From Candidatus Poribacteria bacterium (GTDB lineage Bacteria; Poribacteria; WGA-4E; WGA-3G), in NCBI GenBank assembly GCA_965197475.1, contig CBDANF010000003.1, positions 2,784,001 through 2,848,000 on the forward strand: a stretch of DNA of 64,000 nt, in the 5' to 3' direction. The notes under the pieces were generated by a model. That model did not search any database. It was not told where the DNA came from and worked only from the letters and a program-made list of their open reading frames with translations. Position 1 is the stretch's first letter. Each line of letters opens with the position of its first letter. Position numbers and translations under genes: made by a program. This document shows positions 2,423 to 33,910 of this stretch, piece by piece.

Positions 2423-2609
2423 TTTGTGTGTTGCCTTTGGTCGGTAGAAGCGATTTTGATTAGCACTCCTGCCGTTTGTAAAGTTTCTTGCTATGATACC
2501 ACAATTCCCTGATATTTCACAGGGCCATTTAGTTTCGCAATAAGTAGTTTTGGACTTGCAACAAACATGTAAAAATCGCTACAAACACAGATGTAGACTA
2601 CATTTCCAC

Positions 2610-2638
2610 TTGTTTTAATTGTGCAACTATGATACAAT
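2610..2638 (+). promoter_or_regulatory. Putative sigma70 promoter for the transposase
   Basis: TTGTTT-N17-TACAAT inside the left end. Confidence 0.5.
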
Positions 2639-2641
2639 ATA

Positions 2642-2752
2642 GATAAGAAAGTAGGGGGTTGGTAGCCCCCTAAATGAACACAAAAAGCGAGTTGCTTTTT
2701 GACGGTTCTAATCTTATCTGGTATTATATCAGAAATCCGTCAGAAAAAGCAA
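2642..2752 (-). ncRNA. Putative antisense RNA unit (RNA-OUT-like) over the transposase leader
   Basis: Minus-strand TTGCTT(2752-2747)-N18-TATAAT(2728-2723), then hairpin TAGGGGGCTACCAACCCCCTA plus a U-rich tract ending near 2642. Confidence 0.45.
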
Positions 2753-2774
2753 CTCCTATTTCAAGGAGTATCTG

Positions 2775-3659
2775 ATGGATTTATTGAAGGTAATGGAGCG
2801 TTTTCCTGACCAAGAAGCATGTATTGAGCATTTGGAATATATTCGGTGGCGTGGTGAACCAAGATGTCCGCATTGTGATAGTCTAAACGTTGCGGAACGG
2901 ACAGAGACGGAATTGGGACGCATCGGACGCTGGCAATGCCATGATTGCACTGCTACTTTCAAGGTGACGTGTGGCACGGTGTTTCACGGGACAAAGATAG
3001 CACTTCAGAAGTGGTTTTTGGCGATCTCGTTGATTGTGAATGCGAAGAAGTCGTTATCCAGTTACCAGTTGAGTCGTGATTTAGACTTGAATCAGAAAAC
3101 TGCATGGTTTATAATGACTCGTATCCGTGCTGAAATGGCAAAGAAAGGTAGCAACGTGCTATTACAAGGCATCATAGAGGCTGATGAAACTTACATCGGG
3201 GGTAAACCTCGCAAGCCGAACAAGAAAGCAGATGCGGAGCCTGCCAAGCGTGGTCGTGGCACTGATAAAGACGCAATCATCGGGGCTGTCCAACGCGGTG
3301 GGAAAGTTGTAGCACAACTTGCAAGGGATTTGACAGGACGGACTATTTTAGACTTTATCCGAAGAGCCGTGAAAGTTCAGGATTCGGAGTTGATGACCGA
3401 TGAATATAATGCTTATCTCGCACTCGGTAGAGATATGAAGCATCATATCATCAATCATCAAGAGCAATTTGTTGACGGTGATGTCCACACAAACACGATT
3501 GAGGGGTTTTGGTCGCTTCTCAAACGCGCTTGGTATGGTTCACATCACCACTATTGGACTGAATATACGCCCCTGTATGTCGCAGAGGCGTGCTACAAGT
3601 ATAACTATAGGAGCATTGACAGCATCTTTGATAAGTTTGTTAATGAGAGTATGAGATGA
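2775..3659 (+). CDS. IS1595-family (ISXO2-like) DDE transposase
   Basis: CPHC...CHDC zinc ribbon, HTH, EADETYIGG, TDEY, HTNTIEGFWSLLKR. Confidence 0.96.
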   Translation: MDLLKVMERFPDQEACIEHLEYIRWRGEPRCPHCDSLNVAERTETELGRIGRWQCHDCTATFKVTCGTVFHGTKIALQKWFLAISLIVNAKKSLSSYQLSRDLDLNQKTAWFIMTRIRAEMAKKGSNVLLQGIIEADETYIGGKPRKPNKKADAEPAKRGRGTDKDAIIGAVQRGGKVVAQLARDLTGRTILDFIRRAVKVQDSELMTDEYNAYLALGRDMKHHIINHQEQFVDGDVHTNTIEGFWSLLKRAWYGSHHHYWTEYTPLYVAEACYKYNYRSIDSIFDKFVNESMR

Positions 3660-3665
3660 GTGAAA

Positions 3666-4001
3666 CTAAAGGTACCCAGGGCGTTTCTTTGCATGATCCG
3701 CGGGTTCAGGCGGTGCTTGCAGCACAGATGGCGGAAGCTCGAATGTCTTTTGATCCGAATTCAAAGCTTCGAGAATATTTTGGAACAATGTATAGCAATC
3801 TGACTCGGATTGGAAGATGCCCAAATTGTAGAGAAAAGTTGATTGGTTCGATCCATGAGCGTCTACATGTTTCAACAGAGTCAGATTGAACAAGTTTGAT
3901 TCGTTGTTCTTGATGATCACAATTTCATCATAAATATTAAGATTTACGGCTAATGGACAAAATCCAGTGATTTGTTCAGGTTTTGGAAATATGATTAACA
4001 T
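3666..4001 (-). CDS. Conserved IS passenger protein (111 aa), homolog of 32725-32997
   Basis: RBS AAAGGA before ATG 4001; shares ALxxxxxTFELP and terminal YL with the copy 2 ORF. Confidence 0.7.
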   Translation of the reverse strand: MLIIFPKPEQITGFCPLAVNLNIYDEIVIIKNNESNLFNLTLLKHVDAHGSNQSTFLYNLGIFQSESDCYTLFQNILEALNSDQKTFELPPSVLQAPPEPADHAKKRPGYL

Positions 4002-4049
4002 GATAGTTCCTTTGTGAGTTAGAGGGGACAGGGGCACCTCGTTGTTGGG

Positions 4050-4286
4050 TTAGTCTGTTTTCTTTCGGTTTACATACCGTTTGATACACCAAGCGGTGAA
4101 TCTTGCCGACAGAAAAATAATAGGTATGCCGACAATTTGGGCTACCAATGCTACTAATGCGTATTCTCGAGCACCGAGAACAGTGACTATAGATCCAATG
4201 ATAGCGAAAAACAAAAGCCAGTTTTTCAACGTGTATTTTTGCTTATAGTAAGCAAATACAAGAAGTGGCCACACTAAAAGTACCAT
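4050..4286 (-). CDS. Small membrane protein, variable IS cargo
   Basis: 78 aa with three hydrophobic segments; RBS AAGGGA. Confidence 0.6.
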   Translation of the reverse strand: MVLLVWPLLVFAYYKQKYTLKNWLLFFAIIGSIVTVLGAREYALVALVAQIVGIPIIFLSARFTAWCIKRYVNRKKTD

Positions 4287-4346
4287 GATATTCCCTTATG
4301 GTAAGGGTTGTACGTGTTTTGTTTATAGGATCACGTTGTTTAACCT

Positions 4347-4425
4347 TAACGTTGTTCCCGATCTCATTCGGTTTGGTAGGGACTGCCTCAAGCGAGACAG
4401 ATGAGATTCCCTACCAACAACGTTA
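4347..4425 (-). ncRNA. Structured RNA (three-way junction with bulge-loop kissing), copy 1
   Basis: P1 TAACGTTGTT/AACAACGTTA; P2 GGTAGGGA/TCCCTACC; bulge ATCTCAT; P3 CTGTCTC/GAGGCAG; P4 CCG/CGG with loop AATGAGAT; covaries with copy 2. Confidence 0.75.
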
Positions 4426-4429
4426 GGAT

Positions 4430-4459
4430 AGTATAACATGTGGGAGAAAAGAGAGTCAA
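4430..4459 (-). promoter_or_regulatory. Inward-facing sigma70 promoter in the IS right end
   Basis: TTGACT-N18-TATACT with extended -10 TG; conserved in copy 2. Confidence 0.75.
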
Positions 4460-4505
4460 GTGAAAAATTCAATGGCTTGTTGCAAGTCCAAAACTACTTA
4501 TTGCG

Positions 4506-5114
4506 TTAAAATTTATCAAGAGTTATGCTGTTCAACAGACTGATCTGTTTGCAGAACAAGTGGTTACAGATACATCAGATACTGAAGATACAGTAGTAAT
4601 ATCATTTGGTGAACAACTTGCCAGGAAACGGGACGATGTTGAAATGACCCAAGAGGATTTGGCAGCAAAAGTTGGTTATACTCGTGGGCACATTGCCCTT
4701 ATTGAACAGAACAGAGGAACACCTGGAAAGAGTCTACACAGAAAATTAGTTGAACTATTCGGTGAATTCTCAGAACCAGCCACTGAAACAAGAACTACCA
4801 ATATTTTAGCAGTTGAAATGGAGGATGGGAGTTGGATTTCAGAGAATACAGGGATAGAAACTTTCATTGAGGTCATTAAGCAAATAGACATCGAAAAGGT
4901 AAAAGAACTCAATAAATACGAAGCAAAGATACCTTTGGTAGCGGATAATGAGGATCCTAATAAGGCACAAAGAACAGTCGAAACAGATACAGGGACGATA
5001 TATTACATATTTTCGGGTCTTGCTATTACAAGAATGAAAAGAATTTTGGATGACATCGCTGATCGTCTTAATCTTGATATGAAAGTCTTTATTAACCAAG
5101 TCAAAAAAAGATAG
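4506..5114 (+). pseudogene. XRE-type HTH protein, probably 5'-truncated by the IS
   Basis: MTQEDLAAKVGYTRGHIALIEQN is an HTH_3 pattern; the frame is open from the IS end at 4506 (LKFIKSYAVQQ...) into ORF 4560. Confidence 0.6.
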
Positions 5115-15401: not shown

Positions 15402-15475
15402 TCGGGGCGACTGGATTCGAACCAGCGACCTCTTGAACCCCATTCAAGCGCGCTTCCGGGCTGCGCCACGCCCCG
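15402..15475 (-). tRNA. tRNA-Pro(GGG)
   Basis: CGGGGCGTGGCGCAGCCCGGAAGCGCGCTTGAATGGGGTTCAAGAGGTCGCTGGTTCGAATCCAGTCGCCCCGA cloverleaf; CCA not encoded. Confidence 0.96.
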
Positions 15476-31830: not shown

Positions 31831-31902
31831 CGCAATGAGTAGTTTTGGACTTGAGAAAAATTTTAAAAAATCGCTATAAAGCCTTGTGTCCACTGGGTTT
31901 AT

Positions 31903-32715
31903 CGGTGGCGAGGTAAACCTGTGTGTCCGCATTGTGAAAGCGATCATATAGGAGAACGGACAGAAACAGAAATCGGTCGTATCGGTCGTTGGAACTGCCA
32001 CGAGTGCCAAGTGAGTTTCAAGGTGACGTGCAGGTCGGTGTTTCACGGGACAAAGATAGCGTTACAGAAGTGGTTTTTGGCTATTTCGTTGATAACGAAT
32101 GCGAAGAAAAGTTTGTCAAGTCATCAACTTGCGCGCGATTTAGACTTGAATCAAAAGACAGCATGGTATATCATGACTCGTATCCGTGCTGAAATGGCAA
32201 AGAAAGGTAACGTGCTACTACAAGGCATCATAGAGGCAGATGAAACTTACATCGGGGGTAAACCTCGTAAGCCTAATAAGAAGGAAGACCACGTGCCTGC
32301 CAAGCGTGGACGTGGAACAGAGAAAGACGCTATTATCGGGGCAGTACAGCGGGGCGGGAAAGTTGTAGCACAACTCGCTAAAGATTTGACAGGACGGACT
32401 ATTTTAGACTTTATCCGAAGAGTCGTCAAAGTTGAGGATTCGGAGTTGATGACCGATGAGTATAAGGCGTATCTCGCTATCGGCAAGGAGATGAAACACC
32501 ATATCATAGATCATCAAACGCAATTTGTTGAGGGTGATGTCCACACAAACACAATTGAGGGGTTTTGGAGTCTACTCAAACGAGCTTGGTATGGAAGTCA
32601 TCACCACTACTGGACTAAATATACGCCCCTGTATGTAGCAGAGGCGTGCTATAAATACAACTATAGGAGCATTGACAGTATCTTTGATAAGTTTGTTAAT
32701 GAAAGTATGCGGTGA
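31903..32715 (+). pseudogene. IS1595 transposase lacking about 23 N-terminal codons and its leader
   Basis: Highly similar to 2775-3659 from RWRG.P.CPHC onward; about 235 bp missing relative to copy 1. Confidence 0.85.
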
Positions 32716-32724
32716 TGGACACAA

Positions 32725-32997
32725 CTAAAGGTATGCCTTATCAATCTTGTTCTTTTTGTCATCAGGATTTGAGGGAAAATGCTGTGGAAGTTCAAAAGTT
32801 GGCTTTCCATCTTTCAGAGCATCGATCATGTCAAGAGCAAATTCCAACCTCTCATTGTCCGTGTCAAAAGGTTTCTGAATCACTACGCGAAAATTTGTAT
32901 CAAGTTTTACAAGGGCGAGTTCTACAAAACTCTCTGTATGTAAGGCTAAAAGTGAAAAATCAACAGGATCGGAAGGCGGCTTGAATATTACCCACAT
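32725..32997 (-). CDS. Conserved IS passenger protein (90 aa)
   Basis: RBS AAAGGAG; ALKDGKPTFELP...YL homologous to 3666-4001. Confidence 0.7.
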   Translation of the reverse strand: MWVIFKPPSDPVDFSLLALHTESFVELALVKLDTNFRVVIQKPFDTDNERLEFALDMIDALKDGKPTFELPQHFPSNPDDKKNKIDKAYL

Positions 32998-33053
32998 GGG
33001 TTTAGTCTCCTTTGGGGTTAGAGGGGACAGAGTCCCCTCGTTGGTTGGAATTG

Positions 33054-33443
33054 CTAATACCCGTATGGAGAATCAGCAGCTGAAATTAAAATTATCCAAA
33101 GTCCCACCATAGTGCCAGTTCCAATAACACATCCTATTGTAGCATGTGTTATTTGGTCGTTTTTCACAAGTTTTTGATAAATGCTTGTGTAATAAGCAAC
33201 ATATTCTGGTGATTTTCCAAGCAATTTTTCTGGTAGTACCGTTGGTGTGACAACATACGCAATTAACATACCGGTAACACCAAGTAGACAACCAACAGTT
33301 CCCCATATTTGAGTGTTTGCAAGTGTTGCATCACGTCGTGCATCAAATATTGCTTGCGCAGCATCACTTGTTTGTTGTGCAAGTGTGAGATATGGCGTAG
33401 TGAATAACATCACAACCATTATAAACGACAAAGTTTTCATCAA
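33054..33443 (-). CDS. Secreted/membrane IS cargo protein
   Basis: Signal peptide (..TLAQQ) and two TM segments; RBS AAAGGA. Confidence 0.75.
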   Translation of the reverse strand: MMKTLSFIMVVMLFTTPYLTLAQQTSDAAQAIFDARRDATLANTQIWGTVGCLLGVTGMLIAYVVTPTVLPEKLLGKSPEYVAYYTSIYQKLVKNDQITHATIGCVIGTGTMVGLWIILISAADSPYGY

Positions 33444-33510
33444 TGTTCCTTTTGTGAGGTAAAATGTGTATGTAGGGGATCAAAAGACCCCCTACATGTT
33501 TGCAAGCGGA

Positions 33511-33642
33511 TTATTTACACCGCTTGTGAGGTTTGACAGTTTCTTTCACCGTTGTGGCGGGACGGCGTTTGTCCGTGCCTTTGGGAAGGAACCGTCCGTC
33601 TTTGGCATCGCGTACACGCGTGCCAGTGGCTTTTTTAGCCAT
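33511..33642 (-). CDS. 43-aa basic peptide, IS cargo
   Basis: RBS GAGGT; MAKKATGTRVRDAKDGRFLPKGTDKRRPATTVKETVK. Confidence 0.65.
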   Translation of the reverse strand: MAKKATGTRVRDAKDGRFLPKGTDKRRPATTVKETVKPHKRCK

Positions 33643-33749
33643 AGTATACCTCACTTTGCTTGAGATAAATTGGTGCATAGCGTATTTCCAGTGCGTTATG
33701 CACTGTTCAAGCATATAAAATTGATACGTTAAACGGGTATCGTTCGTAG

Positions 33750-33827
33750 GTTCGTTTACACCTTTCTATGGGTGAGGGCAGGACACAACACAAGGAGTGT
33801 TGCGATAGAAATCCTGCCCAACGAACT
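33750..33827 (-). ncRNA. Structured RNA (three-way junction with bulge-loop kissing), copy 2
   Basis: P1 GTTCGTT/AACGAAC; P2 GGGCAGGA/TCCTGCCC; bulge TTTCTAT; P3 CGCAACAC/GTGTTGTG; P4 CACC/GGTG with loop CATAGAAA. Confidence 0.75.
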
Positions 33828-33834
33828 TGAGAAT

Positions 33835-33864
33835 AGTATAACATGGAAAGAATTTGAGTGTCAA
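33835..33864 (-). promoter_or_regulatory. Inward-facing sigma70 promoter in the IS right end
   Basis: TTGACA-N18-TATACT with extended -10 TG. Confidence 0.8.
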
Positions 33865-33910
33865 GTGAAAAATTTGAGAAAAAATTTCAAGTCCAAAACT
33901 ACTCATTGCG

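Follow-up and report, generated by a model that had tools for sequence, protein, structure and literature searches.

A pseudoknotted three-way-junction RNA motif before IS1595 cargo genes and tnpB genes in a Candidatus Poribacteria genome and its relatives

We describe a structured RNA motif of about 80-85 nucleotides (nt) that is encoded in two insertion sequences of the IS1595 family, both found in a 64,000-nt stretch of a Candidatus Poribacteria genome (assembly GCA_965197475.1, contig CBDANF010000003.1, positions 2,784,001 to 2,848,000). This whole stretch is hereafter called the window, and coordinates refer to it. In the motif, which we call the leader RNA, helices P1, P2 and P4 meet at a junction, P2 continues through a 7-nt bulge into the hairpin P3, and pairing between the bulge and the loop of P4 closes the fold as a ring-like pseudoknot. 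It is close to certain that the leader RNA is a genuine, selected, structured RNA motif. We consider it likely, from its position, that it acts in cis as a 5' leader; that it does so by gating translation or by protecting the messenger RNA (mRNA) is a model to which we give about an even chance.

The fold and its covariation

Both copies of the motif lie on the minus strand. Copy 1 (4348 to 4424) opens with P1 (4424-4416 paired with 4356-4348) and the 8-base-pair (bp) helix P2 (GGUAGGGA, 4415-4408, paired with UCCCUACC, 4382-4375). The bulge AUCUCAU (4407-4401) leads into the P3 hairpin (4400-4383), which holds one G-U pair on the minus strand. A short junction strand (4374-4372) is followed by P4 (4371-4358), whose 8-nt loop contains AUGAGAU (4367-4361), the exact complement of the bulge. 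Copy 2 (33750 to 33826) realizes the same plan in largely different letters: P1 pairs 33826-33820 with 33756-33750, P2 pairs GGGCAGGA (33819-33812) with UCCUGCCC (33783-33776), the bulge UUUCUAU occupies 33811-33805, P3 (33804-33784) again has one G-U pair on the minus strand, and the loop of P4 (33774-33759) contains AUAGAAA, the exact complement of its own bulge. An earlier note on the window, made from the letters alone, had listed this common fold, with its exact bulge-loop complement and a G-U pair in each P3, and every element that it listed is present.

The motif is found 5-10 nt downstream of a predicted promoter inside mobile elements, which would place it at the extreme 5' end of the transcript. 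In copy 1, the predicted promoter is of the sigma-70 type and reads inward from just inside the right-hand terminal repeat (4430 to 4459, minus strand; TTGACT, an 18-nt spacer, TG and TATACT, with 10 of 12 consensus matches). It ends 6 nt before P1, as expected from the earlier claim that P1 begins near the predicted transcription start. The corresponding promoter of copy 2 (33835 to 33864, minus strand; TTGACA, an 18-nt spacer, TATACT) was read by eye. The leader itself lies about 60 nt inward of the IS1595 terminal repeat, not at the end of the element.

Helices P1 to P4 of both copies are recovered by RNAfold, with z-scores of -5.6 and -6.0 and with none of 200 shuffles folding as well. The plus strands, however, fold about equally well (z-scores of -6.1 and -7.3), so energy alone does not choose between the strands.

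In the host genome there are 37 elements with paired repeats, in several size classes, and their right ends carry five variants of the leader, which we call subfamilies A, B, C, D and F. The architecture is kept in all five, and in each of them the P4 loop contains the complement of the bulge: AUCUCAU with AUGAGAU in subfamily A, to which copy 1 belongs; UUUCUAU with AUAGAAA in subfamily B, to which copy 2 belongs; AUGUUAC with GUAACAU in C; AUGUUAG with CUAACAU in D; and CUGUUAG with CUAACAG in F. Subfamilies C and D are one compensated change apart in the pseudoknot. The genome also contains six identical cores of 1956 bp, and all six have the same leader; the pairing sequences are therefore specific to subfamilies and not to single copies, as the earlier note had supposed. 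All 25 model matches in the host genome are at IS1595 right ends, 24 of them in complete elements and one in a solo end, whereas seven elements of 1125 bp have neither cargo nor motif. The solo end is of subfamily B, consists of leader and terminal repeat (G000:C3:2588834-2588993), and follows a complete subfamily A element at a distance of about 950 bp.

A covariance model of subfamilies A, C and D (model R1), which contained the nested helices only and was applied to a search space of 77 kb, gave as its best non-training matches subfamily B (20.1 bits, E-value 0.015) and subfamily F (16.3 bits, E-value 0.14), with the best noise at 15.7 bits. For subfamily F this step alone is weak, and the doubt was removed by the later search of the genus. 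The subfamily B match is the copy 2 leader, which R1 had been built without; it scores 72 bits with model R2, which was trained on it, and the copy 1 leader reaches 78.5-85 bits in covariance model scores. Model R2, made from the five variants and applied to 40 genomes of the genus at E-values up to 1, matched 35 of them, with up to 29 matches in one genome. From 30 best-per-genome loci and 53 further places we obtained 90 matches, 86 of them distinct, which form the homologue set used below. Since MAFFT misaligned the five variants, model-based alignments were used. The pseudoknot was absent from every covariance model used for collecting and aligning the homologues, and was added only for counting.

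Across the 86 distinct homologues, standard pairs fill 95.0% of paired cells, compared with 67.4% in column shuffles, and 34 of the 35 pairs show changes on both sides; the genomes are mutually related, so that counts of genomes and of sequences overstate the number of independent events, and the number of distinct pair types per position is the better guide. The covariation score is 0.678 as against 0.192, and none of 500 shuffles reaches the observed values. When the partners are slid by 1-3 columns, pairing falls to 34-42%. In the pseudoknot helix, both-sided changes occur at all seven pairs, and 88% of cells are paired in spite of the rows of subfamilies B and F, which the model-based alignment sets one column off in the bulge and which thereby lower the count.

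The pseudoknot can also be assessed independently of register. When each bulge is compared with the P4 region of its own homologue, at least 7 contiguous Watson-Crick pairs are found in 69 of the 86 homologues, while only 58 of 7160 mismatched bulge-loop combinations do as well. The homologues carry 48 distinct bulge sequences. Among the 17 with fewer than 7 pairs, some have 6, some have 7 if a wobble is counted, and some are apparently decayed. Thus all five helices covary, including the pseudoknot that lies outside the search model, and the covariation of the 86 homologues together with the register-free test upholds the earlier proposal of a selected structured RNA whose three-way junction carries a covarying bulge-loop helix of 7 bp.

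In the homologues, paired cells contain 126 G-U combinations and 52 A-C combinations, some of the latter stemming from the register shift, and hexamers resembling the -35 and -10 boxes stand upstream of 73 and 75 of the 86 homologues, respectively. The excess of G-U and the promoter-like hexamers therefore favour an RNA read from the minus strand of the window, by a margin that is clear but not overwhelming.

Conservation was counted in 83 sequences, the three weakest rows being left out. In P2 the sequence itself is conserved: the fifth pair is G-C in all 83, with 81-98% conservation at the positions next to it. The second base of the P3 tetraloop is likewise C in every one of the 83. P1, P3 and the pseudoknot vary freely, with compensation, and what is held constant besides is the length of the P4 stem (3 bp), of its loop (8 nt) and of the junction (3-4 nt).

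Contexts, distribution and novelty

The flanks of the 86 distinct copies fall into three contexts. The motif lies at IS1595 right ends, preceding cargo genes; or right after an IS1595 transposase gene that is read from the same strand; or, in many copies, after a hairpin and a promoter and directly before an open reading frame (ORF) that starts with M-R-T-Y-K-Y-K. Two of these ORFs, of 373 and 379 amino acids, match the Pfam families OrfB_IS605 and Cas12f1-like_TNB, and are therefore TnpB; the ORF begins 6-8 nt past the end of the motif. Other downstream genes encode small basic peptides, putative secreted or lipoproteins, and unknown proteins. Sorting by regular expression gave 27 copies with an IS1595 repeat within 90 nt, 20 of tnpB type and 39 'other', a crude division that undercounts both types, for tnpB N-termini of the form TYKHK or TYKDK and repeats more than 90 nt away are put in 'other'. 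Further copies retain the complementarity of bulge and loop, as the earlier note's check by covariance model and covariation demanded, but the motif is not the IS1595 speciality that the note had made of it: many copies stand directly upstream of IS605-type tnpB, and some before other genes.

In the tnpB-type copies L017, L021, L030, L031, L034, L045, L046 and others, a conserved imperfect hairpin is found 60-90 nt upstream of the motif and before the promoter (CCCCAUGC, a 4-nt loop and GCUUGGGG, then AGGAAUGCCCG). It is presumably the left-end hairpin of an element of the IS605 type.

The host genome has no photosystem reaction-centre genes, and the host is therefore not a cyanobacterium. Model R3, built from the 90 matches and applied at E-values up to 0.01, matched 108 of 151 genomes drawn from the host's order, with more than 700 matches. 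By family, it matched 92 of 103 genomes in the host's own family (by genus 33/38, 57/59, 1/2, 1/1 and 0/3) and 15 of 29 in a second family, all in one genus (15/20); none of 11 genomes in a third family and none of 7 in a fourth gave a match. The draws from the class and the phylum consisted mostly of the same genomes as the draw from the order. They added two small samples from overlapping families outside it, one of 14 genomes and one of 11, and neither contained a match, a result that holds for the genomes searched and does not establish absence.

Contig collections were scanned with an exact pattern for the commonest sequence form, a procedure that says little about absence, since records near the host genome may be left out. 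Genome contigs yielded 2 stretches, one a true member and the other a chance match (17.6 bits); viral contigs yielded 0; metagenome contigs yielded 1, which the model did not confirm at E-values up to 0.01. The true member (L102, 7522-7609 of CAZGAW010000006.1, from an uncultured-bacterium metagenome-assembled genome) scores fully, at 80.3 bits, with the bulge AUUUGAG and the loop CUCAAAU; it adjoins an oxidoreductase-like gene and has no obvious transposase within 2 kb. A comparison of the whole copy 1 element with plasmids by blastn gave no match.

Rfam 15 (4227 models) finds in the whole window, at the gathering score, only a tRNA at 15402-15475. In the region 4200-4520, at E-values up to 10, it returns three unrelated weak matches far below their gathering scores, and in twelve diverse loci (29,267 bases), at E-values up to 1, it returns none. 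In the literature we found no description of the leader RNA, although the supplementary motif lists of RNA-discovery papers could contain one; the matching passages of two 2026 bioRxiv preprints do not mention it. In agreement with the earlier expectation of a new RNA, no Rfam family matches, and on these database and literature searches the leader RNA appears to be a member of a previously uncatalogued family of structured RNAs.

A probable cis-acting leader and its alternatives

The motif occupies a fixed place after the promoter, it is followed by ORFs on the same strand, and neither terminators nor arrays accompany it; for these reasons it likely acts in cis. Its position, between the predicted transcription start and the first ORF and on the coding strand, is that of a cis-regulatory leader. 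Neither in the two window leaders nor in the flanks of the copies is there a tandem array, or a terminator-like T-run after the motif, which argues for a leader and not for a separate small RNA gene. The earlier note had offered several roles, and among these the 'cargo leader' fits the position of the motif.

A second feature bears on how such a leader might work. The 3' strand of P1 is usually followed, after 1-8 nt, by a near-identical second strand, which we call the distal copy. It shares at least 7 identical nt with the proximal strand in 42 of the 86 copies, as against 161 of 6432 cross-controls. In 43 of 49 distal copies the 3' end is an ATG or GTG. From these 43 start codons, 19 frames remain open to the end of the 160 nt examined, 16 of them with a TnpB N-terminus by eye, and the other 24 run for 1-27 codons. 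Of the 43 start codons, 22 have a Shine-Dalgarno-like sequence ahead of them; most of these belong to the tnpB class, in which that sequence lies in the outer 3' part of P1. The letters past the distal copy in IS1595 leaders resemble the first tnpB codons, and this resemblance suggests that the promoter-leader module of the two element types may have a common origin.

Under minimum-energy folding with RNAfold, the 5' strand of P1 pairs with the proximal copy in 17 of 28 tnpB-type leaders, with the distal copy in 9 and with neither in 2. The two pairings are therefore close in energy. The probability that the start codon is unpaired ranges from 0.00 to 0.98 across these 28 leaders. In both window copies, the closed junction with the proximal strand is a clear energy minimum.

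On the proposed model, P1 of the tnpB form would extend over the Shine-Dalgarno sequence, and its 5' strand could pair with either the proximal or the distal 3' strand, the latter of which bears the start codon. Proximal pairing would close the junction and leave the start codon free, while distal pairing would hide the start codon. The pseudoknotted junction would bias the choice between the two pairings, and might in addition make the 5' end of the transcript compact and resistant to nucleases. We infer the production of the RNA, the exchange of pairings in the cell, and the effect on translation or stability.

The model fits the tnpB class well and the IS1595 class only partly. IS1595 leaders retain the fold and the distal copy, usually with a short or vestigial frame behind it. 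Several observations weigh against the model. Subfamily B and its relatives lack the distal copy, the longest match being 3-4 nt. In copy 1, the distal copy (4332 to 4340, minus strand; AACAACGUG vs AACAACGUU) ends in GUG and opens a frame of only 3 codons, and the real ORF lies about 60 nt further on, behind a hairpin of its own; thus a start-codon gate is not the whole story for IS1595 leaders. The RNAfold energies were computed without the pseudoknot. Moreover, hiding a ribosome site needs only a hairpin, and the model leaves the near-invariant P2 and the invariant C of the P3 loop unexplained. These two features suggest that the RNA has a partner molecule or makes a tertiary contact, and a host partner, for example a protein or RNA polymerase, would explain them better than a gate. 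Finally, four metatranscriptome runs from one study contain the element, and their contigs cover the leader (4228-4436, 4293-4466 and 4407-4506), but contigs from RNA libraries show neither strand, ends nor level, nor do they distinguish RNA from carried-over DNA, and they carry no weight here.

The main rival to gating takes up this conservation directly: a host protein or RNA polymerase would bind the leader, which might for example be a processive antitermination element, as the put RNAs of phage HK022 are, loaded at the moment of its emergence from the polymerase. We judge this unlikely on balance. In its favour, the motif always comes immediately after a promoter; P2 and the C of the P3 loop are conserved while P1, P3 and the pseudoknot drift freely; one leader serves unrelated downstream genes in two unrelated families of elements; and its occurrence in one order only, among the genomes searched, fits a partner specific to the host. 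Yet no partner is known, no terminator that needs read-through has been shown, and the conserved helix sequence may equally reflect tertiary contacts within the RNA.

Gate and host partner could also be combined. In such an RNA switch the junction would expose or hide the start codon of TnpB, or of the IS1595 leader frame, through strand exchange, in response to a host signal or to a factor that reads P2 and the P3 loop. This is a speculative proposal of low probability; if true, it would tie the activity of mobile elements from two unrelated families to a single input from the host. In a bolder variant, the 7-bp bulge-loop code would also operate between molecules, so that sister elements sense each other's RNA.

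A riboswitch, or a sensor of a ligand, an ion or temperature, would use the pseudoknotted junction as its aptamer and the exchange of proximal and distal strands as its expression platform. The architecture of the tetrahydrofolate riboswitch is similar, and the closeness in energy of the two pairings of the P1 5' strand would suit such a device. We nevertheless find this reading doubtful. There are few conserved unpaired nucleotides from which to make a pocket, conservation resting mostly in helix P2 and one base of the P3 loop; the genes downstream (tnpB, genes for unknown small proteins, and genes for putative secreted proteins) form no coherent metabolic set; and there is no Rfam match.

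The complementarity of bulge and loop could in principle also be satisfied in trans. The RNAs might form dimers or multimers, as phi29 pRNA does, or a leader that had been cut off might act on the start-codon regions of sister elements and so control copy number, for which the 5' strand of P1 has the complementarity to the start-codon region of its own subfamily, and the many copies per genome (up to 29 matches) the opportunity. This we consider quite improbable. The co-resident codes AUGUUAC, AUGUUAG and CUGUUAG differ by as little as one nucleotide in seven, and are therefore not orthogonal codes; there is no sign of selection for orthogonality. The constant lengths of the P4 stem, its loop and the junction are those expected of closure within one molecule, and no terminator or processing signal is seen at the motif. 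An intramolecular pseudoknot is the simpler reading, and multimerization is not needed for the data.

Two further readings carry very little weight. Ribozymes are known from mobile elements, and a compact pseudoknotted junction in such elements might cleave itself as a new ribozyme, or might serve as a processing signal for trimming element transcripts at their 5' ends; this is very improbable, as no Rfam ribozyme matches, the junction strands are short and poorly conserved, and a promoter directly upstream leaves little to trim. Most improbable of all is a structure at the level of DNA, such as nested inverted repeats used in transposition: IS605-type elements do use single-stranded DNA hairpins, and both strands fold equally well by energy, but G-U exceeds A-C in paired cells (126 to 52), the motif keeps its position and direction after the promoter in two families of unrelated transposition chemistry, and in IS1595 it is set some 60 nt inside the terminal repeat.

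Two known kinds of RNA were considered and rejected. A type III toxin-antitoxin system, to which the earlier suggestion of an antitoxin would belong, is not supported: there is no tandem array, 83 of 86 sources containing the motif only once and the other three having a further match that is weaker and hundreds of nt distant, and the five cargo proteins contain no family of the ToxN/AbiQ type and no other defence protein (Pfam, NCBIfam and PADLOC, E-values up to 0.1). Nor is the motif an omega RNA of TnpB, for it ends 6-8 nt before the tnpB start codon and behind an internal promoter, not at the 3' end. The suggestion of a guide is unsupported as well, because the predicted transcript starts inside the element and reads inward.

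Host elements and known systems

The two window elements that carry the leader have exact 23-nt terminal inverted repeats, for which the chance expectation is 0. Copy 1 (subfamily A; 2536 to 4505, plus strand; 1970 bp) is bounded by repeats at 2536-2558 and 4483-4505, and copy 2 (subfamily B; 31831 to 33910, plus strand) by repeats at 31831-31853 and 33888-33910. The transposase gene of copy 1 (2775 to 3659, plus strand) encodes a DDE transposase of the IS1595 type, of 294 amino acids, which matches Pfam DDE_Tnp_IS1595 (E-value 1.6e-36) and Zn_ribbon_IS1595 (E-value 1.4e-9); a DDE_Tnp_IS1595 transposase, an N-terminal zinc ribbon and terminal inverted repeats are the marks of the IS1595 family. 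In both elements the transposase is on the plus strand, and small ORFs on the minus strand converge on it. In copy 1, the first cargo ORF (4050 to 4286, minus strand) encodes a hydrophobic protein of 78 amino acids and has its Shine-Dalgarno sequence inside a small hairpin; the second (3666 to 4037, minus strand) encodes up to 123 amino acids, though judged by eye it more likely starts at the ATG at 4003. Searches of Pfam, NCBIfam and PADLOC at E-values up to 0.1 assigned none of the five cargo proteins in these two elements to a family. The core of copy 2 has 2066 bp as against 2282 bp in its sister copies, and is a variant of the 2282-bp form. Within 31831-32715, its transposase ORF lacks about the first 30 codons together with the 5' untranslated region, while both terminal repeats are intact, and copy 2 is probably a non-autonomous element.

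Other structures accompany these genes. Ahead of the transposase gene, in the left end of copy 1, the segment 2652-2769 contains three strong hairpins and a promoter (TTGACG-17-TATTAT, 2699-2727). The last hairpin (2752-2769) takes in the AAGGAG ahead of the transposase start codon, which is a usual way of keeping transposase translation low. On the minus strand, a conserved hairpin that immediately precedes the last cargo gene's Shine-Dalgarno sequence (4022-4041 in copy 1, 33021-33039 in copy 2) is common to subfamilies whose cargo otherwise differs; in copy 2 it consists of GAGGGGAC, a 3-nt loop and GUCCCCUC, in copy 1 it is degenerate, and it has no T-run.

Copy 2 has in addition a second conserved structured element (33658-33712, minus strand), between the leader and the gene of a small basic peptide. 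An outer stem, GCUUGA/UCAAGC, encloses an inner stem, GUGCAUA/UAUGCAC, with the internal segments ACGCA and UACGC, and a Shine-Dalgarno sequence and the start of the basic peptide of 43 amino acids (MAKKATGTRVRDAKDGRF...) follow. This element occurs in 12 of the 86 downstream regions, including those of L003, L009, L011, L012, L015, L018, L020, L022, L032, L039 and L047, with compensatory changes in both stems by eye. Rfam gave no match in L003 and L005, two loci that contain it.

Elsewhere in the genome, the element L004 (G000:C3:1375500-1378000) and five sister elements, of 2423-3455 bp, form an IS1595 subfamily with variant terminal repeats, a similar promoter and a different leader. This leader has a 17-bp hairpin and then a second hairpin, after which the 5' strand of the first is repeated near the start region. 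It may be another three-strand arrangement, and gives no match to the covariance models.

Among known RNAs, the tetrahydrofolate (THF-I) riboswitch is a three-way junction in which a hairpin loop pairs with an internal bulge and so closes the fold, and it resides in a 5' leader. In this architecture the leader RNA is alike, being also a junction with loop-bulge closure in a 5' leader. It differs in having no Rfam match, no folate genes downstream and few conserved unpaired bases, its conserved part being a helix.

Alike in setting are the transposase mRNA leaders of IS10 and IS200, which hide the ribosome site, and the toxin mRNAs of the hok type, which have metastable 5' folds. As in these, the leader RNA would lie at the 5' end of a mobile-element message, and in predicted folds a Shine-Dalgarno sequence or start codon can pair with an upstream strand. 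Those systems, however, are simple hairpins or long-range pairings, whereas the leader RNA is a conserved pseudoknotted junction with a duplicated 3' strand, common to two unrelated families of elements and to varied cargo genes.

The prohead RNA of phi29 shares with the leader RNA a three-way junction with two mutually complementary single-stranded segments. The leader RNA, in contrast, is found in insertion sequences, with 0 matches of its commonest form in viral contigs and none in Rfam, and its geometry fits intramolecular closure. The exoribonuclease-resistant RNAs of flaviviruses combine a three-way junction with a pseudoknot in a ring-like, mechanically stable fold. The likeness here is of a ring-like junction with a pseudoknot upstream of an RNA to be protected; there is no similarity of sequence or model to the leader RNA.

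The last comparison is with the omega RNAs of TnpB and IscB and the bridge RNAs of IS110, which are likewise structured, pseudoknotted RNAs in insertion sequences and, in the case of TnpB, next to tnpB. The leader RNA differs from them in that it stands 5' of tnpB behind an internal promoter, reads inward, and has no flank-derived guide, and in that IS1595 elements, which are of the DDE type and have no nuclease, carry it too. No Rfam family was matched in two tnpB loci whose sequence continues beyond the gene. At the least, the leader RNA can enter RNA catalogues as a clean new family and serve as a marker when these elements are annotated. Structured RNAs of insertion sequences have, moreover, repeatedly proved to be working parts, as the omega and bridge RNAs did. 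The leader RNA and the omega RNA flank tnpB on opposite sides, and the leader fold also stands in front of the cargo operons of a DDE-type insertion sequence; it offers a handle on how the expression of TnpB is set, and on the expression of the passenger genes of IS1595.

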